DNA of 64,000 nt from an uncultured Candidatus Bathyarchaeia archaeon (GCA_964584965.1 CAZPBM010000023.1:713-64712); one strand, 5' to 3'; positions 503 to 17,069 are shown, numbered from the stretch's first letter. The notes: generated from the sequence alone by a model not told the origin. Program-made: numbers and translations.

Positions 503-1846
503 TTGAAATACGAAGAACTCGAAGCACTTGTAAAAGAAGAAACCACGCAAAGAGAAGAAGAAGGCTGCGAAGCAACAGAAATTAAAGAAGAACTAAAAAA
601 AATCAAGAGGAAAAGCCCAAGAAAACTTGAGCACATCTTGAAAAGCTTGTCAATGCTTTCCGTGAAAGAAGATTTTCCATATCGTGAGCCTTCCACGCTT
701 GAGGAAATAAGAGCGGAGCGACCCAAAAAACATAAAACAATAGAGTTTAAACTTGATGAAGAGCATCTTTATGACAAAATTTTTGGAGGATGGCTGGGAC
801 GCTGCGCCGGCTGTCTGCTTGGCAAACCCGTTGAAGGCTTAACTAAAGAACAAATCGAAGAGTGGCTTAAGATCGCAGGCGCATACCCACTTAGTAATTA
901 TTTTCCACCTTTACGCGATGTTAAGGGTCTTCCAGACTGGTTGAAGAAACGTGCCTCTTGGACAGGCGTTCTTTTGGGGCACATTACCCATATGCCTCGC
1001 GACGACGACATCGATTATCCAATAATTAATCTTCACCTTCTAGAAACGAAGGGATTCAAGTTCACAACATTGGATGTTGGAAACAACTGGCTTGAAAACC
1101 TTCCATATTTTAAGGTTTACACCGCTGAAAGAGTAGCATACAGAAACCTAGTCAATGGGCTTGTTCCACCTGAAACGGCACAATACCTAAACCCTTATCG
1201 TGAATGGATAGGCGCCCAAATAAGGGCAGACATATTTGGCTACGTGACGCCTGGGATGCCTGAGCTTGGAGCTGAACTTGGCTACAGAGATGCAATCCTA
1301 TCACACGTGAAAAACGGCATCTATGGCGAAATGTTTGTTGCTGCAATGATCAGCGCCGCCTTTACGACCAGCAACATCGAGGAAATAGTTGATTATGGGC
1401 TTTCGGAAATTCCAGAAAAATCTAGGCTTTTCGAGGCAGTGAAAAACGTTATTGCTTGGAGCAAGAAATATGATGATTGGAGAGACACGTGGCAAAAAAT
1501 TTTCGACAGATACGGTCATTATCACGGAGTTCACACCATAAACAACGCCGCACTTGTTCTTTTAGGACTTTTATATGGAAAAGGCGACTACGAGAAAAGC
1601 ATCGCCATAAGCGTCATGGGAGGATGGGACACCGACTGCAACGGAGCAACAACTGGATCGATTCTCGGAGTTGTGCTTGGAGCAAAAAAGCTTCCAAAAA
1701 AATGGATTAACCCGCTGAACAACATGGTTGAAAGCTACGTGGTAGGCTACAACAACAGCAAAATTTCAGACCTGGCTCAAAGAACTTTTATCCTAGCTCA
1801 GCAAGCTCAAAAAGCAATTCTAGAAAGAAAAAACAAAGAGAAATGA
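503..1846 (+). CDS. ADP-ribosylglycohydrolase family protein with an E/K-rich N-terminal extension
   Basis: The N-terminal family motif is GGWLGRCAGCLLGKPVEG and the C-terminal metal-site motif is GGWDTDCNGATTGSILGV. The ORF opens at TTG; the first ATG is at 653, so the true start is uncertain. Confidence 0.8.
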   Translation: MKYEELEALVKEETTQREEEGCEATEIKEELKKIKRKSPRKLEHILKSLSMLSVKEDFPYREPSTLEEIRAERPKKHKTIEFKLDEEHLYDKIFGGWLGRCAGCLLGKPVEGLTKEQIEEWLKIAGAYPLSNYFPPLRDVKGLPDWLKKRASWTGVLLGHITHMPRDDDIDYPIINLHLLETKGFKFTTLDVGNNWLENLPYFKVYTAERVAYRNLVNGLVPPETAQYLNPYREWIGAQIRADIFGYVTPGMPELGAELGYRDAILSHVKNGIYGEMFVAAMISAAFTTSNIEEIVDYGLSEIPEKSRLFEAVKNVIAWSKKYDDWRDTWQKIFDRYGHYHGVHTINNAALVLLGLLYGKGDYEKSIAISVMGGWDTDCNGATTGSILGVVLGAKKLPKKWINPLNNMVESYVVGYNNSKISDLAQRTFILAQQAQKAILERKNKEK

Positions 1847-3540: not shown

Positions 3541-6012
3541 CTAAGTTACTTCTATGAACGCATCTTCTGACAGCTCGTCATATTTTTCGGTTTCTACAGG
3601 TTTACCAAAAGAAAGGTTTACGATTCCGTGCATGGCTTTAAGGTCGTCTTTTAATGGTTCAAGCTGAACCGGTGCAAATATTTGAGCCTCCAGCTTCTCG
3701 CTTAAAGCTAAACCTCGGTTTTTCTTGTACCGCCACACAGCGTTGTTGAACTCGACAAGTTTCGGAAGCAACTCTAAATAGCTACTTCTCCAGTTTGAGG
3801 TTTCTTTTGGAAAATCCTGAAGGTGTATACTTTGTTTTGAGTAGAGTTCAAGCCATAAAGCTTCAGTTATGAATGGACAGATGGGAGCTAACAATTTTAG
3901 AACGGTCTCTAAACATTTATGTAACGTAAACCAGGCGCCTCTTTGAAGTTCTAAGCTAAATTTTCCACCTCTGTTGTAGGCTCGAGACTTTACTGCTTCG
4001 AGATAATGGTCTGCAAACAAGTTCCACGTAAAAGTCCTAATTGCAGTAGCAACTGCGAAAACGTTCATCTCTTCATATCCTGCAATGCAATCGCGGATGA
4101 GTTCATTGAGTCTTCCCAAAATCATCAAGTCAAGTGGTGCAAGTTCATATTTTTCATGCGTTTGTGGAAATGAAGAAATGTATCTAGCTATGTTCCAAAG
4201 CTTTGTTAGAAACTTCGAGTTTCCTTGGATCCTTTCAAACGAGCATCTTATGTCGCCACGAGTTATGTTGCCTTCCAAACCGGACCAAATTCGGAAGGCT
4301 TCGGCTCCAAACCTGTTTATTGCTTCTTGAGGATCAATCCAAGTTTTAGGATTACTTTTACTTATTTTTCTACCCTCTTCGTCAACAACGTGCATGTGTA
4401 TCCAGACGTTTCGGAAGGGCGCCTTGCCAAAAAGCAAATGAGATTTCAACATAGTAAAATAAAGCCAGTTTCTAACAATTTCTTTCCCTTGTGGTCGAAG
4501 GCTGCACGGAAAGCTTTTTTCGAAAAATTCCCCGCCCCAGAGTAATCCGAGTATGTAGGCTTCAGACGTGGCTGAGTCAAACCAAGTGTCGAAAGTTCTA
4601 TCTTCACCGCGAAACTCAGTGGAGCTGCATTTTGGACACTTGTCTATTGGAGGTTTTTCTTTCCAAGGCTGATAATATCTTTCTGGCTTTGGAACATATA
4701 CATAGTCACAGTTTTTACAGTACCAAAGTGGGATTTCAGTTCCATAATATCTTCGTCTTGAGATAACCCAGTCTATGCCCACCGAGTTTATCCAGTCGAT
4801 GAGAATTTGTTTACTTTCAGGTGCAAAAAAGGTCATCTGATCAGTCATTTGCAAAAGAGCATCTTTAAATTCAACTTGCTTAAGGTAAATTTCCTTCATT
4901 GGCACAAACTCAATTGGATTTTTGGATCTCCAACAAATAGGTCTCCTCTGCACAAGTTTCTCAGTCTTCACATACAAACCTTGATTTTTTAAATCTTCGA
5001 TAATTCTTTTTCTAGCTTCTTTAACTGAAAGACAAGCGTATTTTCCCGCATTTTGGTTCATTTTTCCCTTGGAATCTATCGAATAGACAGGATCCAAGCT
5101 AAGTTCTCTTAGTATGCGAACGTCGCTGTAGTCACCGAAACTGCAGATCATAACGAGTCCTGAACCAAACTCAGGCTTCGCATATGAATGAGGCTGAATT
5201 TCTACCGAGTTTCCATAAATGGGTACGACTGCATGTTTTCCCTCAAGGTTGTTGTAACGTTCGTCTTCGGGGTTAAAAATTACGGTTCTACATGAACACA
5301 GGAGCTCAGGCCTAGTTGTCGCTATAACCAAATCTTGCCCAGTTTCTTGAAGCTTGAATTTTATGTAGTGCAGCTCTGTTTCTTCTTCCTCATATTCCAC
5401 CTCAGCGTCAGATATTGTTGTTCCGCAGACTGGGCAATAGTTCGTTGTCTTCTCGTCTTCGTAGACGAGTCCCTTGTTCCAAAACTCGATGAACGTCTTC
5501 TGAGTTAGTCTACGATATTCAGGATCATCAGTCTCATATCTTCCGCCCACTTGGTGTTCAAGGTCCCAAGAATTACAGCTTAGTCCTAGTCTTTTGAAAG
5601 TGTCAAGAGACCTGTCGCCGCTTTCTTGAAGTATGCGTCGGCATTTTTCTATAAATTCTTCTCTGGGAGTCTCATGCATAGAGATCTTGTAGTACTTTTC
5701 GGTTTGAACCTCAACTGGTAAGCCATTCTTGTCCAATCCCATAGGAAACAGAACATTAAATCCCGCCATCCTTTTGTATCGTGCGAAAACATCCATCCAA
5801 GTATACGTAAAAGCTTGACCGATATGAACCGGAGTATTCACGTATGGAGGCGGCGTGTCAATGCTGAAAACCGGCTTTTTACTCGTTTTGTCGAATCTAT
5901 ATATTCCCTCTTTTTGCCACTTCTGAAAAAGCACAAGTTCGATCTTTGGATCCCAAGTCTTCATGGTTAGACTGGGTTTGAAAGTTTGAGAACCTTCAGT
6001 TTCCATAGACAT
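3541..6012 (-). CDS. valS: Valine--tRNA ligase (archaeal type)
   Basis: FSIDTPPPYVNTPVHIGQAFTYTWMDVFARYKRMAGFNVLFPMGLDKNGLPVE matches the class I ValRS N-terminus. The KMSKS-type loop reads GRKISKS. Length is 823 aa. Confidence 0.9.
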   Translation of the reverse strand: MSMETEGSQTFKPSLTMKTWDPKIELVLFQKWQKEGIYRFDKTSKKPVFSIDTPPPYVNTPVHIGQAFTYTWMDVFARYKRMAGFNVLFPMGLDKNGLPVEVQTEKYYKISMHETPREEFIEKCRRILQESGDRSLDTFKRLGLSCNSWDLEHQVGGRYETDDPEYRRLTQKTFIEFWNKGLVYEDEKTTNYCPVCGTTISDAEVEYEEEETELHYIKFKLQETGQDLVIATTRPELLCSCRTVIFNPEDERYNNLEGKHAVVPIYGNSVEIQPHSYAKPEFGSGLVMICSFGDYSDVRILRELSLDPVYSIDSKGKMNQNAGKYACLSVKEARKRIIEDLKNQGLYVKTEKLVQRRPICWRSKNPIEFVPMKEIYLKQVEFKDALLQMTDQMTFFAPESKQILIDWINSVGIDWVISRRRYYGTEIPLWYCKNCDYVYVPKPERYYQPWKEKPPIDKCPKCSSTEFRGEDRTFDTWFDSATSEAYILGLLWGGEFFEKSFPCSLRPQGKEIVRNWLYFTMLKSHLLFGKAPFRNVWIHMHVVDEEGRKISKSNPKTWIDPQEAINRFGAEAFRIWSGLEGNITRGDIRCSFERIQGNSKFLTKLWNIARYISSFPQTHEKYELAPLDLMILGRLNELIRDCIAGYEEMNVFAVATAIRTFTWNLFADHYLEAVKSRAYNRGGKFSLELQRGAWFTLHKCLETVLKLLAPICPFITEALWLELYSKQSIHLQDFPKETSNWRSSYLELLPKLVEFNNAVWRYKKNRGLALSEKLEAQIFAPVQLEPLKDDLKAMHGIVNLSFGKPVETEKYDELSEDAFIEVT

Positions 6013-6360
6013 TCACCAATCTTTCACAAATTTCGTCAAAGAGGAAAGAAGATTCGAAAATATTTTTTAACAAAGGCCCTTTTCGGGCTAAAGTACTTGG
6101 TAATGGCGGTGCATTGGCGCCAATCGAACCACCTTTCCTCCAGCAAACAGTTATTTTCTAATGAACGGGTTGTTTCATATAAATATAATCGTTTCGGAAG
6201 TACATTTGTTTCTTTTTATCTGTTGAAAGTTATTAAAGACATAGAATCAGATAATGAAAAACACATATTACTATTATCATTCTTCATTGGAAAAGTTCAC
6301 CACCCTCTATATCTATTTTTTATGATTATCGGTTGTTTAGAAGTCCAAAATTCAGAGATT

Positions 6361-6915
6361 TTATTTTTTGGTTCTCTTTTGTTTTGTTGTGACAGAATTC
6401 TCAAGAAGCATATAATATGAGGCTTCGTCGTAGAAGGTTCCGTTTTTACGGATCCGTTTTCGCCTGATTTTTTCAAGTTTAAATCCAGCCTTCTCTGCGA
6501 CGTGTCTCATCGCATAGTTGTCAGCGCGGGTTTCAATCTCTAACCTAACTATGCCGCTCTTTTTGGCCAGCTTAAGTGCTGACTTCATAAGTCGTGTGGC
6601 GATTCCTTTTCCCCAAAAATCCGGGTGTACACTAATACCTATGGCCGCCACATGATCCATATATGTTCCGTACCGCCAAAGACCAAGAAAACCTGCAACT
6701 CTATCACCGTTTTTTGCAACCAAAATTTCGGCTTTTCGGTTCTTAGGCAAGTTTCGAAAGAACCGCCTGTAAGCTAAATATTCTCTTTCAACATTAGTTT
6801 CTACGCGTATAATGAGCCATTCTCGCACCTTTTCGTGGCATTCTATCTCAGCAATAGCTTTTACGTCTTTAACCTTTAGCTTTGTTTGTTTTGCGTTAAT
6901 AATTTCAGTTTTCAA
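6361..6915 (-). CDS. GNAT family N-acetyltransferase
   Basis: The acetyl-CoA binding region reads HPDFWGKGIATRLMKSALKLAKKSG. Length is 184 aa. Confidence 0.8.
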   Translation of the reverse strand: MKTEIINAKQTKLKVKDVKAIAEIECHEKVREWLIIRVETNVEREYLAYRRFFRNLPKNRKAEILVAKNGDRVAGFLGLWRYGTYMDHVAAIGISVHPDFWGKGIATRLMKSALKLAKKSGIVRLEIETRADNYAMRHVAEKAGFKLEKIRRKRIRKNGTFYDEASYYMLLENSVTTKQKRTKK

Positions 6916-7069
6916 GATGTCCCTCCAAAGGGATGAAACAAAAGACCAAGCCAGAATTATTTAAGCTTTATCTTCAGTGTTCTTCTGCTCATATAGCACG
7001 TAAAAAAATTAGTAGTTAAATATAAAAAACTAAATAATTGTCATCCTGTAAATTGAGAATGTAACCGCC

Positions 7070-8095
7070 ATGACCATAAAATATGACAAAAAACGAAGAA
7101 ACATAATAGTTGGGGTTCTTTTTAATACTCCTGTTGAGCCATTAAAGGGTGAGGAAATAGATTTTATTGCTGATGCAGAAGTTAAGGAAGTAGCAGAAGC
7201 TGTTCAGAAAGCCTTGGAAAAACTGGGTTTAGAATACCAAATGATACCTTTTGAGATGGACTTTGAAGTTTTGGTTAAGACACTAAAGCATCGTAAACCC
7301 AACGTAGTCATAAATCTTTGTGAAGGAGCTTATGGAGATAGCCATCAAGAAATGAACATTCCTGCAATTCTTGAAATACTCAGAATACCTTATACTGGCT
7401 CCTCCCCATTAACACTTGGGATATGTCAAAATAAAAGGCTTACAAAAGAGATATTAAGAGCAAACAGGTTACCAACACCTAAATTTACAATTCTGGAAAA
7501 CTTTAGCGACTGGAAGAAAGAAATAAGATTTCCCTTATTCGTCAAACCTTCAAAAGAAGACGCAAGTATCGGCATTTCAAGTAAAAGCTACGTAAGAAAC
7601 GAAGCTGAACTTAAGGCCCAAGTTGAATACATACATAATCGTTACAAGCAACCAGCATTAGTAGAAGAATACGTGGCTGGAAGAGAGCTTAACGTGTCAA
7701 TTCTAGGCAACGAGAATCCAATTGTTCTTCCAATCTCTGAAATAACGTTCGATTTTTCTGAAGAACCAAAAATAGTTGACTTTTCAGCTAAATGGCTAAA
7801 AGAAAGTGAACAATACAAGAAGACAAAACCAGTATGCCCAGCATTACTCCCGGCATCTGTAAAAAATAAAATAGAGGAAATCGCATTGCTCGCATACGAA
7901 AGTCTTTATTGCAGAGATTACGCACGAATTGACATACGCCTAAAAGGAAATCACCCACTGATTCTTGAAGCTAACCCTAACCCTGACATAGCACCCGATG
8001 CAGGGTTCGTTCGTTCGTTAAGGGTTGCTGGAATATCTTACGAACAGTTTATCGAAAAAATAATTCATTTTGCTCTACAAAGAGGATCCAGCTAA
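7070..8095 (+). CDS. ATP-grasp enzyme, D-alanine--D-alanine ligase-like (paralog A)
   Basis: The layout is Ddl-like: a pre-ATP-grasp N-domain (VVINLCEG...IPYTGS), FPLFVKPSKEDASIGIS, QPALVEEYVAGRELNVSILGNE, and ARIDIRL...ILEANPNPDI. Confidence 0.75.
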   Translation: MTIKYDKKRRNIIVGVLFNTPVEPLKGEEIDFIADAEVKEVAEAVQKALEKLGLEYQMIPFEMDFEVLVKTLKHRKPNVVINLCEGAYGDSHQEMNIPAILEILRIPYTGSSPLTLGICQNKRLTKEILRANRLPTPKFTILENFSDWKKEIRFPLFVKPSKEDASIGISSKSYVRNEAELKAQVEYIHNRYKQPALVEEYVAGRELNVSILGNENPIVLPISEITFDFSEEPKIVDFSAKWLKESEQYKKTKPVCPALLPASVKNKIEEIALLAYESLYCRDYARIDIRLKGNHPLILEANPNPDIAPDAGFVRSLRVAGISYEQFIEKIIHFALQRGSS

Positions 8096-8114
8096 AAAAG
8101 AAACTGAAAGTAAT

Positions 8115-9170
8115 TTACAGTAAACTAACCATTGAATGATTTTCGAATAAATGTTGAAGATTATATCTTTTCAAGGCTTGCCAAAGAATTGTACAAATTA
8201 GCTGGTCATAATCAATACCTGCTGCGGAAGCAGCTTCTGGAAGGCACGAATGAGCATCAGGATCAGGAATTAAGCCGGGCAATGGGTTAACTTCCAATAC
8301 TCGGGGCTTACCTGCTTTGTCAAGTCTTATGTCCATTCGGCAAAGATCTCGACAGTTAAGGACACGGAAAGCTTTAACTGCAATTTGTTTTATTTCTGTT
8401 TCAAGTTTAGCTGGAACATCAGCTGGGCAACAGAAGATGTCAAGTGGTTTCTTTGGTACATCCCAAATCCATTTTGCCTCATAAGAATAAATTGGGCTGG
8501 CTTCGCTTGGAAGTTTTTCAAGCAAAATTTCGACTATCGGAAGGACAAAAGGATTTCCGTTGCCGATTAAGCCAACAGTGAACTCTCTACCTGGAAGAAA
8601 TTCTTCCACAATTGCTGGTTGCTTGTAAGTGTTGATAACCCAGCTAATTTGGTCTCTTAGACTCTTTTCATCTTTTACTAGAGACTTAGTCCTAATTCCT
8701 TTGCTTGAGCCTTCAGCTAATGGTTTAACGATTAGAGGGAACTCGAACTTCCGTTTTCTTTCTTGGTTAGGTGACGAAAACACTTGAAAATTTGGTGAAG
8801 GAACACCGTTGGCTTTAAGGAATTGATGCGTTAAAGCCTTATCTAAGGCTATGGCTAAGGTGAGTGGTCCTGAACCAGTGTACGGTATTCCCAGCATTTC
8901 CAACATTGCGGGAATTTGAGATTCTCTGCTTTCGCCTCTTAACCCTTCAGCAATGTTGAAGACAATGTCCGGCTTCAGATTTTGAAATTTGTTGTATGCA
9001 TCTTCGTTTGCTTCTATTTTTAATACTTCGCATTTGCCTTTCCTCAAGGCTTCCGCTATGGCGTGAACTGTTGTTTCATCATCAAATTCAATGTAGAAAT
9101 CTTCAGGTTGCTCTGAATTCTGGTCCACTGGCTTCTTAATGTTATATGTTAATCCAACATGAAGTGTCAT
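8115..9170 (-). CDS. ATP-grasp enzyme, D-alanine--D-alanine ligase-like (paralog B)
   Basis: FPLIVKPLAEGSSKGI, QPAIVEEFLPGREFTVGLIGNG, and CRMDIRLDKAGKPRVLEVNPLPGL. It lies 9 nt downstream of, and co-directional with, the KamA-like gene. Confidence 0.75.
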   Translation of the reverse strand: MTLHVGLTYNIKKPVDQNSEQPEDFYIEFDDETTVHAIAEALRKGKCEVLKIEANEDAYNKFQNLKPDIVFNIAEGLRGESRESQIPAMLEMLGIPYTGSGPLTLAIALDKALTHQFLKANGVPSPNFQVFSSPNQERKRKFEFPLIVKPLAEGSSKGIRTKSLVKDEKSLRDQISWVINTYKQPAIVEEFLPGREFTVGLIGNGNPFVLPIVEILLEKLPSEASPIYSYEAKWIWDVPKKPLDIFCCPADVPAKLETEIKQIAVKAFRVLNCRDLCRMDIRLDKAGKPRVLEVNPLPGLIPDPDAHSCLPEAASAAGIDYDQLICTILWQALKRYNLQHLFENHSMVSLL

Positions 9171-9179
9171 TGTCTTTCA

Positions 9180-10274
9180 CTAGGGTACCTTTACAGGGAC
9201 CTCCATAGGTGATGTAACTGGTTTTTCCTTTGGAATTTGTGGGTAAGTGAACTGTTTTCCCTCATAATTTTTCATGATGACCTGATTTTCCTCGAGGCTT
9301 ATAAGGTATCTTGGGAGAATAGGTATCTTTCCTCCACCACCTGGTGCGTCTATAACATATCTTGGAACAGCGAAACCAGAAGTGTAACCTGTAAGGTCTT
9401 CAATTATTTTAAGTCCTGTTTCTACTCTTGTTCTGAAGTGATAGGTGCCTTTAACAAGATCCATTTGAAAGAGATAGTAGGGTTTGACTCTGATCTTCAG
9501 AAGCTTTTGAACAAGGCTTTTCATAGTTTCAGAGTTGTCGTTGATTCCTTTAAGAAGCACTGACTGGTTGCCAAGAGGGATTCCTGCATCAGCAAGCAGT
9601 CCGCATGCCCTAGAGCTTTCTTCAGTTATTTCCCTTGGGTGGTTAAAATGCACATTAACGTATAATGGGTGGAACTTCTTTAACATGTTGCACAATTTTG
9701 GCGTTATTCTTTCTGGTAATGTGCAGGGTACTCTCGTTCCAATTCTTAGAATTTCGACATGTGGAATTGCTCTTAGACTTTTCAGTAAGAACTCAATTGT
9801 ATTGTCGGGTAACAGTAGGGGGTCTCCTCCTGACAACAGGACGTCTCTAATAGCTGGGGTTCTCTGAACGTAGCTTATTTGTTCAAGCAAAACTTCCTTT
9901 GAAAGGTTAATCAGTGGTAAGCCAACCCTCCTTTTTCTGGTGCAAAATCTACAGTACATTGCGCAGCTGTTTGATACGCACATTAAAACTCGGTCAGGGT
10001 AGCGGTGAACTAAGCCAGTTGTGGGGCTGTCGCCTTCTTCATTCAACGGGTCTTCAGTGCCGTATGGATCTTGTAATTCAAGTGGGCTTGGAATACATTG
10101 TTTCCAGATTGGATCGTCGACTTCTTCTATTAGGTTAAAGTAGTATCTTGAAACTTTCATCGGGTACTTAGCGACAACGCTGTCCAAAGCTTTTGTGTCA
10201 ACAGAAAATTTTTCGAGGAGTTGATGAGGTTTAGTTATACATTCAGAAAGACTTTTTTTCCAACCTTCAACCAT
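9180..10274 (-). CDS. KamA family radical SAM protein (lysine 2,3-aminomutase-like)
   Basis: The radical SAM cluster motif is CAMYCRFCTRKRR. SGGDPLL, HFNHPREITEES, GNQSVLLKGIND and VIDAPGGGGK (PLP lysine) closely follow clostridial KamA. Confidence 0.85.
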   Translation of the reverse strand: MVEGWKKSLSECITKPHQLLEKFSVDTKALDSVVAKYPMKVSRYYFNLIEEVDDPIWKQCIPSPLELQDPYGTEDPLNEEGDSPTTGLVHRYPDRVLMCVSNSCAMYCRFCTRKRRVGLPLINLSKEVLLEQISYVQRTPAIRDVLLSGGDPLLLPDNTIEFLLKSLRAIPHVEILRIGTRVPCTLPERITPKLCNMLKKFHPLYVNVHFNHPREITEESSRACGLLADAGIPLGNQSVLLKGINDNSETMKSLVQKLLKIRVKPYYLFQMDLVKGTYHFRTRVETGLKIIEDLTGYTSGFAVPRYVIDAPGGGGKIPILPRYLISLEENQVIMKNYEGKQFTYPQIPKEKPVTSPMEVPVKVP

Positions 10275-10487
10275 TTTGTTGTAACACGCGCTGTGACACT
10301 TTCATGCCACGAAAAAAATATGCGATTCTGTACGTGCTTTTAAATCTTTCTATTATGTTTGTCTCAAATACAATAAAGATAGTTTTTTGGAAAAAACAAT
10401 AACATTTTGTGATTACGGATTGTGTTCACGATGTGTGCCTTATCCTTATATGTCAACACATGAAGTTTCTCATTAAGGTGAAAATTA

Positions 10488-11819
10488 ATGGACACTGTAA
10501 ACGTTCAGTCCGGATCAATGGAGGTTCTCGACAGAGTGGAAGGTGACCTTAACTTAGCTAATGGAGCGACGATTAGGGCAAAAGATTCCAAAAAAGTTCT
10601 GGTTACAGGAATTGTTCAGTATGATGGTGACTGCGTCTTTGAATGTAGTCTTTTTGCTAATTCAATAAGAGGAAGAAACGGAAATCTCACAATTCAAGGG
10701 GATTTAGAGGTTGAAAAAGCTATTAAAATACATGAAGGCAGTCTTAGGGTTGAAGGGAACCTAGAAACAGTAGATATTGAGGTTGATAAAAGCGTCGTAA
10801 TTGAGAGAAATCTTTCTGCTGAGATCGTTGAAGTTGGTGGAAAACTCTCAGTTGGGGGAAACACTAAAGCAAACGAAGTAGAAGTTGGTGGAACCTTTGA
10901 GACAAAGGGCGACATTGCAGCTCAAAAACTGGAGGTTGGCGGAACAGCGAAAATAGAAGGCTCCACAACCGTTTCAAAGATTGATGTTGGTGGCACGTTT
11001 TATGGAAAGGGAACAGTAAAAGCTGAAAAAATAGATGTTGGAGGCACGTACACATGTGAATCAAACATGGACATCGAAGAATTATGTGTTGGAGGAACAG
11101 CGAAGATCGTAGGAGGTAAAATAAAAGGAAGAGTTAACGTCGGTGGAAGCTTTGATTCCAGCAAACCATTAATTTTTGAAGTTATCGATGTTGGTGGAAA
11201 AGTTGAACTCCGAGGCGAAAGCGAAGGAAAAAAAGTTTCAGTGGGCGGAGCCCTACGTACTGAAGGTAACCTGAAGTTCGAGGATGTCGATGTTGGCGGA
11301 ACCGTGGAGATTCACGGAGACGCTGTAGGTGAAACGATTGATGTAGGCGGCAAACTTTCTGTTGAGAAAACCATAAAACTGTCTGGTAAATTAGCGGTTG
11401 GAGGAGTAGCTGAGGCTGGCAACGAGATTCTTGCTGAGTCGATTGGTGTTGGCGGTTTATTAAAGGCTCAAAAAGTTGAGGCAGCTTCTTCTGTTGACGT
11501 CGGCGGAAGAATAGAAACCGTTTATGGAACAAAAGCTGCGAAAGTTGAGATTGGAAGAAAAGGTAAAATCATTGGGGTTGTTGTAGCGAAAGAAGTGATT
11601 ATTGAGGAAAAAGCCGAAGTCGAAGACATATATGCCGAATATCTTACTATGGAAGAAGGGTCAACTGCAAAAAACGTGTATGCAAAGAAGATCCGCTTGG
11701 AAAGAGAATGTAAGATAACTGGAGAATTACGCTACACTGATGAGTTGAGAAAAGACCCGACCGTAACCTTATCCAAGGAATCAGTTAAAGTCACAGAACT
11801 TCCCCCTCCTCCAATTTAA
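10488..11819 (+). CDS. Bactofilin-like (polymer-forming cytoskeletal, beta-helical repeat) protein
   Basis: The protein is 443 aa. VGG recurs with a 17-residue period across aa 116-340 (pattern [DE]VGG[TK]...), as expected for stacked beta-helix turns of the bactofilin/DUF583 type. The C-terminus ends in the proline-rich ELPPPPI. GGTGA lies 8 nt upstream of the ATG. Confidence 0.65.
   Translation: MDTVNVQSGSMEVLDRVEGDLNLANGATIRAKDSKKVLVTGIVQYDGDCVFECSLFANSIRGRNGNLTIQGDLEVEKAIKIHEGSLRVEGNLETVDIEVDKSVVIERNLSAEIVEVGGKLSVGGNTKANEVEVGGTFETKGDIAAQKLEVGGTAKIEGSTTVSKIDVGGTFYGKGTVKAEKIDVGGTYTCESNMDIEELCVGGTAKIVGGKIKGRVNVGGSFDSSKPLIFEVIDVGGKVELRGESEGKKVSVGGALRTEGNLKFEDVDVGGTVEIHGDAVGETIDVGGKLSVEKTIKLSGKLAVGGVAEAGNEILAESIGVGGLLKAQKVEAASSVDVGGRIETVYGTKAAKVEIGRKGKIIGVVVAKEVIIEEKAEVEDIYAEYLTMEEGSTAKNVYAKKIRLERECKITGELRYTDELRKDPTVTLSKESVKVTELPPPPI
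10833..11507 (+). repeat. Intragenic 51-nt (17-codon) periodic repeat array, about 13-14 units
   Basis: The first residue of VGG falls at aa 116, 133, 150, 167, 184, 201, 218, 235, 252, 269, 286, 304, 321 and 338. The matching DNA shows recurring gttggtgg / gttggcgg / gttggagg strings. Confidence 0.8.
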
Positions 11820-12916: not shown

Positions 12917-14191
12917 CTAAGATTGGTTCGTTAGCTTGTATCTCAGAATGGCTGCTATTCCGCCGAAGGATTTCCAAAGCATCTGTCCCTCCTCGGTTTC
13001 TGTGGAGATTACTTCAACGTTTGTGTTTGTCTGTTCAGCGAGTTCAGCCAGTTCATCCACTATATCTTTTCGTTCGCTTACTTGAAGCGTTGGAGTCTGA
13101 CATTTTGGGCATGGGACACCTGAGAAGGACTGCTCAAACTCAGCAACCTCTGTTGTCTTCATCGTTTTAAAGTAGGCGTGCCCGCATGAGGTGCATTCAA
13201 CCTTAACCCGCGTGGTGTTAAGGGCTTCTGAAAGAAGTAGCGTGTCAACTAGGTTTGCGTTCAAAGCTCTCCGGACTTCCTTTTCTCCGTAAGTTGCCAG
13301 TCCAGTATCATGCCCAATTTCGTAAAGGAATTTCTGGACAATCCTCTTTTCCTCAACGTATCTGACGTTTTTGATAATGTCGGGAGCTCTCTCAAGAATT
13401 TCGTCGATTCCCTGCTCACCTGTGTAAGCCGTGTCCACGATGGCGACGATTTTTTCCTTAAGCCTGTAGTCGATGTATCGACCCTTGTCAAAATCGTACT
13501 TTGTCGGTCCAGCACCCCCTAAGATGATGCCCTTAAGGTCCGGAATTAAGAGGAAATTCTCGTTTGCGTGCGTTCCCACACGTTTAAAAAATTCTTGAAC
13601 CTGCATTTCACGTAGTCTCTCGAACCTTCGGGCAGACTGTCCTCCTGCACGGTGCTTACCTGGAATTCCAGAGGTTATTTCTTCAATAATTTCCATCCTG
13701 GACCCTCGAAGGGCGGCAAAGGTAGCTGCGCTCGTGTCGATTAACAGGATTCCGTATGTTTCAGTTTCTTTCAGCAAATCCATAAGGTACTCAATATGAA
13801 ACTTGTTATCGCAACGGTAAAGGTAAATACCGATAGGCTCAGGCGGGATGACGACGTAGGGTCCTTCAATTCTTTCGCTTCCTAAGCCGTTTTGAGGAAT
13901 TGCGCCACAAAAAATGACCAACCCGTTTTCTGGAACGGTTCTGAAGAGCTTTAGACGCTGGATGACTTTGACAATTGCGTCTTGAACGTTCTTCCGAGTA
14001 GTATTTGACTTAATGTTTGAAGCTGTTCCCCACTCATCCTTAAGCATCTGGGCTACTTCGCTTATCTGGCGTCCAGGAGGAACATAAAGCGAAACAAGCT
14101 CCGTGCCCCTTCCCTCTTTGCGAGCCAGATAATCCAATGTCCTTTTTAAACGAAACCTTTCAAGCGATGTCCTCTTCTGGCTCATTACCAT
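12917..14191 (-). CDS. prf1: Peptide chain release factor aRF1
   Basis: The NIKS motif (TASNIKSNTTRKNV), the GGQ motif (HRAGGQSARRFERLR) and GTELVSLYVPP are all present. Length is 424 aa. Confidence 0.95.
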   Translation of the reverse strand: MVMSQKRTSLERFRLKRTLDYLARKEGRGTELVSLYVPPGRQISEVAQMLKDEWGTASNIKSNTTRKNVQDAIVKVIQRLKLFRTVPENGLVIFCGAIPQNGLGSERIEGPYVVIPPEPIGIYLYRCDNKFHIEYLMDLLKETETYGILLIDTSAATFAALRGSRMEIIEEITSGIPGKHRAGGQSARRFERLREMQVQEFFKRVGTHANENFLLIPDLKGIILGGAGPTKYDFDKGRYIDYRLKEKIVAIVDTAYTGEQGIDEILERAPDIIKNVRYVEEKRIVQKFLYEIGHDTGLATYGEKEVRRALNANLVDTLLLSEALNTTRVKVECTSCGHAYFKTMKTTEVAEFEQSFSGVPCPKCQTPTLQVSERKDIVDELAELAEQTNTNVEVISTETEEGQMLWKSFGGIAAILRYKLTNQS

Positions 14192-14312
14192 GAAACCCTC
14201 AACTTAAGATTCAACGTGAGTAATGCACGTTTCTAATCGGTCTTTAGATTACTTACCCTTGGCTAATTAAACATTTAGGCGTCATCTATGCGTTTCACTA
14301 AAAATCCTGTTT

Positions 14313-14570
14313 TTACGATGTTCTTTCAACTTCTCTTTCGACGCTTTTTAGGAGCTCAGGTTTTGTTAACATCAAAACTGCGAGAGAATGCGAGCATCTT
14401 CCTCTTTGGATGAATCCGGGACAGTTACAGTTTATTTCTCCGTTGATTTTTTGGGCAACCGTGTAGGTACCGTGTTCTCCAACCACGTTGTAGGCTCCTT
14501 CACCTATGTGTTCCACTTTCCTCTTTTGCAGAAGGTCGTAGGCTTTCTTAATCATCTTGTCTATCGGCAA
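14313..14570 (-). CDS. SWIM zinc-finger protein (stand-alone, 85 aa)
   Basis: CNCPGFIQRGRCSHSLAV matches the CxC-x(n)-CxH SWIM signature. Confidence 0.7.
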   Translation of the reverse strand: MPIDKMIKKAYDLLQKRKVEHIGEGAYNVVGEHGTYTVAQKINGEINCNCPGFIQRGRCSHSLAVLMLTKPELLKSVEREVERTS

Positions 14571-14663
14571 TCCCCTTCGCCGGCGTCAAAACTAAAATTC
14601 AATATTAATGCAATGTTATATAAAGTTGGCTGAACAGACTCTGGGTTCTTAATTTTAACGCGT

Positions 14664-15674
14664 CTATTTTTGGAGCCACTTTTTCTTGAGCTTGCATGCA
14701 ACCGTGTAAGCTGGGTCAAAAACGTTTCCAATATCGTATTCAATGCATTGTCCAAGCAAAATGTGCAAAGAACGATCTGTCAAGTCATAGTCTTCTTTAA
14801 GCCATCTTACCATCTCGGTTGTGGCAATCTGAAGAGCCTGGTCTAAAGGACAAGCGTTACCTACCGTTATCAAAAATTCTTGGGTCTCTGCACGTGGCCA
14901 GTTGATGGTTTTGTTCTTAATCACATTAACTGTAAATTGTACATCAAACGAAACTTCAATTCCAGTTCCGACAATTTCACCGTCCCCCTGAACCGCATGG
15001 CCGTCCCCAACAAAGAATAATGCGCCTCGAGTAAAAACTGGGAAATACACGGTTACTCCAGAGACGAAACCATTGTAATCCATGTTCCCTCCATATTGTC
15101 CAGAGGTAATAGACGAGATGGATTGGCCGTCTTCAGGAGCCACACCGATGCATCCAAGCAAGGGATTTAGGGGCAAAACGATTTGCCCAATCTTGGTTTC
15201 CGGGCTAAGCAAAGTGGCAGTCCCTTTTTCAAGGTCCAATCTCCACTCTGCAGTTACGCGTGGTTCCTTCTGCAGAAACTCAGAAATATAACGCGGCTCC
15301 AAAACATGAGGTGCAATAACAGTTGACGACCTTCCCAATTGTCTGTTTGGCCACAGACGGTTCAACTGAACTGCCAAAACATCTCCAAGTTCAGCTCCCT
15401 CAACGTAGAATGGTCCGGTTAACGGGTTTGGGCCAGAAGCGACCTGTTTGTCATTTAAGTCTCTTCCCGCATTATCCACTGTTTTAGTGATAACAGTGTC
15501 TTCATCCTCTATTCTCAGAACAGGCTCATAGGAACCAAACGCTTTGTAATATTTTTTAGGTTCAAACTCATACACGGTCATTATTTCACTTCTTTTTATT
15601 TTGCTCATTTTATTATCAGTTTTTTGCTTGAATGGTTTCAATCTATTGGTTTCATGTATATTTAACATTAGCAC
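14664..15674 (-). CDS. Acetamidase/formamidase family protein
   Basis: GNMDYNGFVSGVTVYFPVFTRGALFFVGDGHAVQGDGEIVGTGIE is the FmdA/AmdA family core. The start may be downstream, at MSKIK 15608 or MTVYEF 15581. Confidence 0.85.
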   Translation of the reverse strand: MLMLNIHETNRLKPFKQKTDNKMSKIKRSEIMTVYEFEPKKYYKAFGSYEPVLRIEDEDTVITKTVDNAGRDLNDKQVASGPNPLTGPFYVEGAELGDVLAVQLNRLWPNRQLGRSSTVIAPHVLEPRYISEFLQKEPRVTAEWRLDLEKGTATLLSPETKIGQIVLPLNPLLGCIGVAPEDGQSISSITSGQYGGNMDYNGFVSGVTVYFPVFTRGALFFVGDGHAVQGDGEIVGTGIEVSFDVQFTVNVIKNKTINWPRAETQEFLITVGNACPLDQALQIATTEMVRWLKEDYDLTDRSLHILLGQCIEYDIGNVFDPAYTVACKLKKKWLQK

Positions 15675-15782
15675 CCTTTTTTATCTAAAAGTGTTTCATT
15701 ATACGCAATTATTTTTATTATGATTTGTTGTTATCTAAGGGTTGATGAGAAAATTAGTTAAAAGGCACATGGTTCTTATATA

Positions 15783-17069
15783 TTGTTTGTGTGCGAGTCG
15801 GGAAAGTGGGACATGAAACATCTTATCGTCGGAATTGATCCTGGCGTAACCGTGGGTTTGGCCGTGCTCACGTTAAATGGTGAGTCTGTGCTGACTGAAA
15901 GCAGACGCAGCTGGAGCTTCTCTGACTTGATTAAGGCAATCTCAGAGTTAGGTGAAGCCACAATAGTCTCCAGCGACGTTTCCCCTGCTTCTGAGCTTCT
16001 AGAACGGATTTCGCATAAACTGAACGCTGTGCTCTTTGTCCCGTTGTCTTCAATGGCTGCCAACGAGAAACGACAAATAGCGAAGGAATATGCTCAAAAT
16101 TTCGAGTTCAAGATCAGAAATGTTCATGAGGCTGATGCTTTAGCAGCAGCAGTAAAGGCTTACAGACATTACCAAACAAGGTTAGAGCAGGTGGAAGAAA
16201 AATTGAAACGGTTAGGTCTTGATCCTCTCGTTGATGAAGTGAAAAACCTTGTAGTAAGGGGATACACTGTAAAAAGAGCGGTTCAGATGCTTCAAGACAC
16301 TAAACGCGTTAATTCTCCAAAAATTGTGAAGAAGGCGGTTCCAAGAGAAGAGCACTTAAAGGACATGATTGCCGAGCTTGAGGTGAGGTTGAGCTGGGAA
16401 CAACAAAAAGCCGAATCTCTCAGACTGGAAAACAGGGAACTTCGGATAAAGCTGAAAACCTTAGAGTCTGAAATTGCTTCCTTAAAAAATGCTATTGAAA
16501 AAGAGAGAAGTAGGCAGCAAATAGAGATTAGGCGTGAAAGAGAGTATGAAGTCTTGTCGGATGAGCTCCAAAAAGCCAAGGCTAGGCTGTCTGATCTTTA
16601 TGTGCAACTTGAAGATTACAAGCATCGTTTCGATGAGGTGCAAAGGCTTAGAGAGCAAGAATCACAAGGAAAAACAGTTCTTCTTAAGCCGATTGAAGCC
16701 TTTACAGAGAACGGGTTGCAAAAAGCCTTCTATCTTTACGGCATAAAAGCGGGCGACTCAGTTTTACTTCTCAACCCAAGCGGAGGGGGCGCCGTGACCG
16801 CTGAAAAATTGTCTAAGAGGGGCATTAGGGTAGTTGTCGCCCAAGGGTCAATGTCGCATCAAGCCCAAGAAGTCTTTACGCAGTACAGAGTTCCAGTAGT
16901 TTCTGCTGAACGTCTGAAAGTAGAATGGCTAGATGGGTTACCGTACGTTAATTCAGAAGCCCTTAGGAAGGTTGTGAAAGAGTCTAGCCAAACAGAGGTT
17001 GTAAAAGCATACGAGGAAATTAGAACTCTTTTAGAAAATCACCGAAAAGAGATTACTGGAAAAGATTAG
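15783..17069 (+). CDS. DUF460 domain protein (RNase-H-like N-domain plus long coiled coil)
   Basis: The N-terminus IVGIDPGVTVGLAVLTLNGE is typical of archaeal DUF460. The central part is a heptad-rich E/K/R/L segment (aa ~190-290). The likely start is MKHLIVG at 15813. Confidence 0.7.
   Translation: MFVCESGKWDMKHLIVGIDPGVTVGLAVLTLNGESVLTESRRSWSFSDLIKAISELGEATIVSSDVSPASELLERISHKLNAVLFVPLSSMAANEKRQIAKEYAQNFEFKIRNVHEADALAAAVKAYRHYQTRLEQVEEKLKRLGLDPLVDEVKNLVVRGYTVKRAVQMLQDTKRVNSPKIVKKAVPREEHLKDMIAELEVRLSWEQQKAESLRLENRELRIKLKTLESEIASLKNAIEKERSRQQIEIRREREYEVLSDELQKAKARLSDLYVQLEDYKHRFDEVQRLREQESQGKTVLLKPIEAFTENGLQKAFYLYGIKAGDSVLLLNPSGGGAVTAEKLSKRGIRVVVAQGSMSHQAQEVFTQYRVPVVSAERLKVEWLDGLPYVNSEALRKVVKESSQTEVVKAYEEIRTLLENHRKEITGKD

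Follow-up and report, generated by a model that had tools for sequence, protein, structure and literature searches.

A conserved gene cassette of a KamA-type aminomutase, two Ddl-like ATP-grasp ligases and an acetyltransferase in Bathyarchaeia and in bacteria

Background

Few uncultured archaea of sediments are as abundant as the Bathyarchaeia, and hardly anything is known of the small-molecule physiology of this group. In a 64,000-nucleotide stretch of DNA from one of them (an uncultured Candidatus Bathyarchaeia archaeon, GCA_964584965.1 CAZPBM010000023.1:713-64712; the whole stretch is called the window below), positions 6361-10274 carry four genes: one for a KamA-type aminomutase, two for ATP-grasp ligases resembling D-alanine-D-alanine ligase (Ddl), called A and B here, and one for an N-acetyltransferase of the GNAT family. 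What would a cell make with such a set? A first-pass annotation of the window had read it as a possible pathway to a beta-amino-acid peptide or an osmolyte. From the mutase, the ligases and the acetyltransferase, the cassette is most likely an amino-acid-derived small-molecule pathway. With modest confidence we go one step further and propose that it makes a small cytoplasmic compound containing beta-lysine, by formation of beta-lysine, two ATP-dependent amide ligations and an N-acetylation.

Gene order and distribution of the cassette

By the coordinates of the open reading frames (ORFs), kamA (9180-10274, minus strand, 364 amino acids) lies upstream of the gene for ligase A (8115-9170, minus strand, 351 amino acids), separated from it by 9 nt (9171-9179, minus strand), and the two are probably co-transcribed. 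The gene for ligase B (7070-8095, plus strand, 341 amino acids), a paralog of A, converges on A, with 19 nt between the two stop codons, and the GNAT gene (6361-6915, minus strand, 184 amino acids, TTG start) diverges from B across an AT-rich spacer of 154 bp (6916-7069), which presumably holds promoters. Coordinates, strands, the 9-nt gap, the convergence and the divergence are all as the first-pass annotation had placed them, and its domain assignments are backed by Pfam and NCBIfam (Radical_SAM and LAM_C in the aminomutase, Dala_Dala_lig_C in both ligases, a RimI/RimJ-like domain of the Acetyltransf_1/_3 type in the GNAT).

Loci for comparison came from two sources, a contig search with a single ATP-grasp A protein (14 genome loci) and a metagenome scan with an alignment of the A family (80 further loci). 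The 14 genome loci are from Bathyarchaeia and have kamA and A in tandem with B convergent wherever enough DNA is present; the GNAT gene is either divergent from B, as in the window, or directly upstream of kamA. Contigs of Nezhaarchaeales have the order GNAT, kamA, A and convergent B within flanks unrelated to those of the window. Every Bathyarchaeia or Nezhaarchaeales locus of sufficient length thus holds the full set, in two arrangements and with differing flanks. More distant loci, in which A is 43-56% identical, have A, B, GNAT, kamA as their dominant order. In one of these, from a member of the Desulfuromonadaceae (L028), the four genes (8001-9068, 9046-10068, 10061-10531 and 10528-11643) overlap at their stop and start codons; the same is true of L044, and short gaps separate the genes in a Kryptonia-like genome (L098).

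How regularly the genes occur together was counted in the 37 loci that have at least 3 kb upstream and at least 4 kb downstream of A. B is present in 34/37, KamA in 32/37 and a GNAT in 31/37, with all four in 27/37. Adjacency of kamA to an ATP-grasp gene recurs in about 90 independent loci, and it is reinforced by fusion proteins that join KamA to A (P0251, 702 amino acids), A to KamA (P0336, 695 amino acids) and A to a GNAT domain (P0371 and P0382). The linkage of these genes is far beyond chance. A search of 1.84 billion representatives at 50% identity gave 1493 relatives at E < 1e-30, and about 40 of the top 150 such representatives are double ATP-grasp proteins; ligase A has B, too, as a fusion partner elsewhere. 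The archaeal names attached to relatives are Bathyarchaeia, Nezhaarchaeales and Nitrososphaerales; the bacterial ones are Candidatus Kryptobacter, Kryptonium and Chrysopegis, Ignavibacteriales, Bacteroidota, Desulfuromonadaceae and Myxococcota. The expectation that the pairing of kamA with an ATP-grasp gene would be kept in relatives is borne out in Bathyarchaeia, Nezhaarchaeales, Kryptonia, Ignavibacteriales, Bacteroidota and Desulfuromonadaceae. The archaeal framing of the pathway has to be given up, as the cassette is also found in bacterial-type loci.

Sequence divergence within the Bathyarchaeia can be compared with that of housekeeping genes flanking the cassette. Conservation in locus L006 is 83% for aRF1, 82% for valyl-tRNA synthetase (ValRS), 84% for KamA, 80% for A, 72% for B and 81% for the GNAT; in L009 the values are 76% for aRF1, 78% for KamA, 73% for A, 65% for B and 67% for the GNAT, with no comparable hit for ValRS. 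From one lineage of Bathyarchaeia to another, KamA and A therefore change no more quickly than aRF1 and ValRS do, a housekeeping rate that suggests a constitutive core function. Two metagenome bins carry the cassette twice (L011 and L013 in JZ-2_2_bin_4.3.1; L007 and L008 in SRP098346_co1_298), being either true duplicates or the result of mixed-strain bins.

An aminomutase of the lysine type

The KamA protein of the window carries the motifs CAMYCRFCTRK, QMDL and VIDAPGGGGK and matches the lysine 2,3-aminomutase of Clostridium subterminale (PDB 2A5H) at E 5e-120. By this alignment the aspartate of QMD corresponds to D293, that of VIDAPGGGGK to D330, and the lysine ending the latter motif to K337, which holds pyridoxal phosphate (PLP); the two aspartates bear out the residue mapping of the first-pass annotation. 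Equivalents of C125, C129 and C132 (the CxxxCxxC motif) and of R134 are present as well. A residue census found C125/C129/C132, R134, D293, D330 and K337 to be invariant in all cassette-linked KamAs (56/56). R134 binds the carboxylate in lysine 2,3-aminomutase, and D293 and D330 reportedly bind the epsilon-ammonium group of lysine; both aspartates are replaced in glutamate 2,3-aminomutase. As the radical-SAM, PLP and lysine-epsilon-ammonium-binding residues are fully kept, beta-lysine is the predicted product of the enzyme. The earlier preference for a lysine-type over a glutamate-type signature therefore holds across the cassette KamAs, with the product itself a prediction.

Scores against curated NCBIfam models place the protein within the family and outside its named members. 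It passes the KamA subfamily model (TIGR00238, 290 against a cut-off of 199). Its best equivalog is AblA (TIGR03820), at 475 bits under a cut-off of 525, and it remains under the cut-offs for glutamate 2,3-aminomutase (441 bits, cut-off 650), arginine 2,3-aminomutase (348 bits, cut-off 600) and EpmB (260 bits, cut-off 369). The bacterial cassette KamAs behave likewise, reaching 470-480 bits against the AblA cut-off and passing only the subfamily model. Glutamate 2,3-aminomutase was rejected as an identity on its score together with the retention of D293 and D330, and EpmB on its score together with the lack of a gene for EF-P in the window and in about 97 loci. The window KamA also ends at 364 amino acids, before the C-terminal zinc cysteines of the clostridial enzyme (C375/C377/C380), and has N at the zinc-site position C268, which is D, N or S across the cassette KamAs. 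The most fitting description is that of a short-form, lysine-type member of the KamA family lying outside the curated equivalogs.

Some relatives depart from this form. One KamA homolog of 563 amino acids (P0150), 60% identical to the window protein, has an extra 4Fe-4S-type domain (PF13353), and in two high-GC loci KamA is found in two adjacent tblastn segments (L075, 9193-10364; L076, 10543-11638), which could reflect a frameshift, pseudogene formation or misassembly.

Two ATP-grasp ligases with different pockets

A and B share 39% identity, and each is about 28-32% identical to E. coli DdlB. Each misses every Ddl/Van cut-off in NCBIfam (A scores 211 and B 165, against 243), as is the case for their bacterial counterparts (178 and 151 against the Ddl cut-off of 243). 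Their strong PDB sequence matches are all Ddl or VanA (the best for A is a Ddl, at E 1e-30), and a profile of the family matches Ddl at E 1e-55 (best 60 of 106 matches). Fold modelling and Foldseek comparison covered ligase A, whose AlphaFold (AF2) model has a predicted local distance difference test score (pLDDT) of 88 and whose top matches are Ddl structures at 20-28% identity. PylC is missing from the PDB matches listed for A and for B, and from the best 60 of the 106 that the family profile gave; named as a precedent in the first-pass annotation, it is on these lists not a close relative of either ligase.

The residues of 90 A-type and 73 B-type sequences were compared by alignment to E. 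coli DdlB, the numbering of which is used here. Those that serve ATP/Mg binding and the transition state (K97, K144, E187, K215, R255, D257, E270 and N272) are kept in A and B, and both ligases should be catalytically active. The D-Ala site is a different matter. In both paralogs H63 is replaced by E and Y216 by W. In A, S150, G276 and S281 are retained, with C at position 282 (L in DdlB) and an invariant R at 68; B has the signature A150, D276, A281, G282 and V210. The differences among A, B and Ddl thus fall at positions 63, 68, 150, 210, 216, 276, 281 and 282. A Ddl/Van identity was rejected on these grounds, residues of the D-Ala site (H63, S150, Y216, S281, L282) being altered and the scores lying under the curated cut-offs. 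These added acidic side chains (E63 in both, D276 in B) might accommodate a substrate that bears one more ammonium group, as beta-lysine does.

When a neighbour-joining tree was rooted on DdlB, the A and the B sequences formed two separate monophyletic clades, both with archaeal and bacterial members. They are orthologous groups of long standing whose conserved pockets differ, so that two distinct ligation steps seem more plausible than a redundant pair. It had been recognized at the outset that these genes might group with a family of established unrelated function; they do not, but fall under all cut-offs, have an altered D-Ala site and form two clades of their own. A and B are apparently two uncharacterised Ddl-like subfamilies. 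None of the four proteins of the cassette, in archaeal or bacterial version, passes a curated NCBIfam equivalog.

A replaceable acetyltransferase

The window GNAT matches 14 NCBIfam families at E <= 0.001, the best being RimI at 50 bits, under its cut-off. AblB is not among these 14, and the bacterial GNAT is also without an AblB match. The GNAT of the bacterial loci belongs to a different subfamily, recognizable by a YDLYWIAV motif and 27% identical to the window protein, and P0371 has, fused to A, a GNAT domain of a third type (20% identical). The acetyltransferase is, on these comparisons, a regular but replaceable component of the cassette, of which at least three types occur. The view of the GNAT as a cassette member thus stands insofar as it travels with the other genes, but it is interchangeable and not AblB-like. 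An ortholog of the bacterial type has a structure, PDB 2R7H (E 1.5e-31, with the YDLYWIAV motif), which was the only cassette-family member among the PDB matches listed. This structural-genomics entry was deposited as a "putative D-alanine N-acetyltransferase", a name that we suspect was derived from a neighbouring gene annotated as Ddl.

A proposed pathway and its precedents

Put together, these genes would form the following pathway. KamA would turn L-lysine into beta-lysine. Ligase A, the neighbour and fusion partner of KamA, would then activate a carboxylate as an acyl phosphate with ATP and form an amide bond involving beta-lysine, and ligase B, with its other conserved pocket, would make a second amide bond with a different pair of substrates. 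One possible route begins with a PylC-like coupling, in which beta-lysine is joined to an amino group on another amino acid, and the second ligation comes after it. An amino group left free, whether on beta-lysine itself, on an intermediate or on the final compound, would be acetylated by the GNAT. A small, N-acetylated dipeptide, tripeptide or isopeptide containing beta-lysine would result; it would be built from common precursors and stay in the cytoplasm, where it could be a compatible solute or a polyamine-like cation, an osmolyte-like role being one option. We infer the order of the steps, the co-substrates, the site of acetylation and the physiological role.

Variation in the number of ligases fits stepwise ligation: L025 and L034 have one, and L046 and L071 have three (KamA with three ligases at 8001-12004 in L046; three tandem ATP-grasp genes without KamA at 5812-9017 in L071). 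In L039 the genes are rearranged as B, a fragment of A, KamA and A (5842-8830).

Several known systems share parts of this logic. In pyrrolysine synthesis a radical-SAM lysine mutase (PylB) is followed by a Ddl-like ATP-grasp ligase (PylC) that forms an amide bond. The resemblance, as we know that system, is that a lysine mutase makes a non-proteinogenic diamino acid which a Ddl-like ligase then joins; the cassette differs in that its mutase is of the KamA/PLP family and not of the PylB type, in having two ligases and a GNAT, and in having neither a PylD nor any further conserved gene. Ngg is a fused GNAT and ATP-grasp enzyme, and in mammals NAT8L and RIMKLA/B make N-acetylaspartylglutamate (NAAG). 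As in the Ngg/AsnO system for N-acetylglutaminylglutamine amide, where a GNAT and an ATP-grasp enzyme turn free amino acids into a small N-acetylated peptide, A-GNAT fusions occur in the cassette family. Compared by description of Ngg and not by sequence, however, the cassette ligases are Ddl-like, not RimK-like or cyanophycin-synthetase-like; the cassette moreover has a dedicated mutase for a beta-amino acid and no linked amidotransferase. That amide is an N-acetylated dipeptide osmolyte (PMC1224877).

The ablA/ablB pathway of methanogens to N-epsilon-acetyl-beta-lysine is summarised in the same source (PMC1224877). There too a KamA-family aminomutase is encoded with a GNAT, and AblA is the best curated model for the enzyme described here. 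The cassette nevertheless has two integral ATP-grasp ligases, as its fusions and conserved operons indicate; its KamA misses the AblA cut-off and has no C-terminal zinc-site region, and its GNAT is not AblB-like and is replaced between lineages. EpmB, a short KamA homolog, supplies beta-lysine for the modification of EF-P (PMC2821294). Both systems have a short KamA homolog without the C-terminal domain feeding an ATP-dependent ligase, but the cassette ligase is an ATP-grasp enzyme and not a LysRS paralog, the EpmB cut-off is missed, and no efp gene occurs in about 97 loci. With Ddl and Van enzymes, lastly, the cassette ligases share the ATP-grasp fold (by structure comparison for A only) and the ATP/Mg catalytic residues; they differ from them in their low identity, their scores, their altered site residues, their linkage to KamA instead of mur genes and their archaeal host, which is not known to make murein. 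Of the three precedents named in the first-pass annotation (AblA/AblB, EpmB/EpmA and PylB/PylC), the first and the last serve as models for the pathway logic; identities with AblB, EpmB and PylC are not matched by the scores, the PDB lists or the neighbourhoods.

Points against the proposed pathway

A number of observations weigh against this reading. The pathway product and the enzyme activities are predicted from gene content. A, B and the GNAT occur without a nearby KamA in L060, L062 and L069, and the GNAT is absent from L074, L077, L081 and L093. The missing GNATs, together with the lack of orthology between GNAT types across lineages (27% and 20% identity), suggest that acetylation is perhaps accessory. 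The GNAT is also RimI/RimJ-like, a type that often acts on proteins. Conservation like that of aRF1 and ValRS would be unusual for a stress solute and would fit a housekeeping modification as well. The hint of an osmolyte comes from one locus only, L028, in which a Na+/H+ exchanger (with TrkA_C) and an MscS channel are encoded downstream of the cassette (13014-15853, plus strand). Of the first-pass suggestion of a beta-lysyl di- or oligopeptide or a modified solute, the linkage of mutase and ligases is supported, but the product and the osmolyte role stay conjectural.

Neighbouring genes and alternative readings

All ORFs of the loci were clustered, and a Pfam census was made of 98 de-replicated immediate neighbours. 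No fifth conserved partner was found in this way, neither a transporter nor a target protein, a precursor peptide or an amidotransferase, which fits a pathway running on common metabolites. The commonest neighbour families are RecG (7), MFS transporters (4), ThyX (3) and HDAC-type deacetylases (2); RecG, ThyX and panB are among the housekeeping neighbours. In the window, in L028 and in L044, no spacer between cassette genes has room for a precursor-peptide ORF. Hints from two single loci do not carry over to the others. L028 has a gene for an HDAC-type deacetylase of 585 amino acids (5932-7689, minus strand), divergent upstream of the cassette. In L098, a contig of 2.5 Mb, a NusG/KOW paralog and a Wzz/GNVR chain-length/tyrosine-kinase protein are encoded directly upstream of the operon (4852-7758), an arrangement that hints at specialised antitermination control.

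The alternative that survives best, unlikely as we consider it, is post-translational modification. The ligases would attach beta-lysine or a beta-lysyl peptide to a carboxylate or a lysine of a protein, and the GNAT would acetylate that protein; by analogy, this would resemble the action of RimK, TTL or EpmA/EpmB on ribosomal proteins or on EF-P/aIF5A. The RimI scores of the GNATs (the best ones, if under the cut-off), weak Pfam matches to RimK and TTL in ligase A, housekeeping-level conservation, the lack of an exporter nearby and the precedent of EpmB as a truncated KamA feeding protein modification (PMC2821294) all agree with it. The ligases, however, belong to a Ddl-like clade of which the known members use small substrates, and the EpmB model is missed. 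No candidate target gene is linked either: there is no recurrent neighbour, and no EF-P gene in the window or in about 97 loci.

Beta-lysine peptides are typical of antibiotics, and a second, improbable alternative is that the cassette is an antibiotic cluster for a cationic beta-lysine peptide, in which the GNAT would confer self-resistance as in streptothricin producers. There is a weak match to the model for streptothricin acetyltransferase (E 1.7e-4) and to MccE, the NusG paralog lies upstream of the operon in the Kryptonia-like genome, and MFS transporters adjoin 4/98 loci. A cluster of this kind is nonetheless difficult to reconcile with a divergence that tracks aRF1 and ValRS in the Bathyarchaeia, with housekeeping surroundings, with a very wide spread (the 1493 representatives mentioned above) and with a set of only four genes that has no regular exporter and no match among the PADLOC anti-phage defence models.

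Slightly less probable again is a building block of the cell envelope, with the Ddl-like ligases providing a wall polymer or polysaccharide with a peptide stem or side chain that contains beta-lysine. In its favour are the Ddl fold (modelled for A) and the Wzz/GNVR regulator and NusG paralog upstream of the L098 operon. The cassette, however, is common to archaea and several bacterial phyla with unrelated envelopes; Mur-type ligases, glycosyltransferases and flippases do not recur nearby, and the residues of the D-Ala site are changed. Plain N-epsilon-acetyl-beta-lysine synthesis by AblA/AblB with bystander ligases, or a KamA of lysine fermentation, is very improbable: AblA is the best NCBIfam equivalog, a GNAT is present and ablAB is a known archaeal precedent (PMC1224877), but KamA-ligase and ligase-GNAT fusions and tight four-gene operons tie the ligases to KamA, the AblA score is under its cut-off, the GNAT has no AblB-model match, and no beta-lysine mutase or other lysine-fermentation family is among the families common to the 98 neighbours.

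Significance

The proposed pathway from lysine through beta-lysine to an amide-linked product is thus the reading that we retain. Conservation at the rate of aRF1 and ValRS, together with the spread and the fusions, points to a widespread beta-lysine-derived compound. A full-text literature search found no paper linking an aminomutase with ATP-grasp ligases in such a set (the older survey of Iyer et al. 2009 lay outside this search). More tentatively, the product may represent an undescribed class of metabolite, a beta-lysine peptide or isopeptide, usually N-acetylated and made by two dedicated ligases, that would belong to the core make-up of the cytoplasm in Bathyarchaeia and in numerous uncultured bacterial lineages, with A and B as new subfamilies of the Ddl branch. 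If this is true, the Ddl-like branch of ATP-grasp enzymes gains two new specificities, and functions are found for a short lysine 2,3-aminomutase without a zinc site and for the GNAT 2R7H. Besides Bathyarchaeia, carriers of the cassette include Kryptonia, Ignavibacteriales, Desulfuromonadaceae and numerous bacteria of soils and sediments. The set is small enough for heterologous expression, so that product and purpose are directly testable.

Other features of the window

The closest relatives of the window are Bathyarchaeia/Bathyarchaeota, proteins of the metagenome-assembled contig JAGTQS010000043 being 92-97% identical at the amino-acid level. Scans of the window for tRNAs and Rfam families gave no match. 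By Pfam and NCBIfam, the genes flanking the cassette encode ValRS, an archaeal UMP kinase, aRF1 and a bactofilin-like protein. The last of these (10488-11819, plus strand, 443 amino acids; Pfam Bactofilin, E 4e-12), in an archaeal host, has many repeated 'VGG' beta-helix turns. Its gene is divergent from kamA, a position kept only in the closest lineage (L004, L006, L007 and L009), which places it outside the cassette. Near the start of the window, a protein of 447 amino acids belongs to the ADP-ribosylglycohydrolase family (503-1846, plus strand; Pfam E 5e-52).

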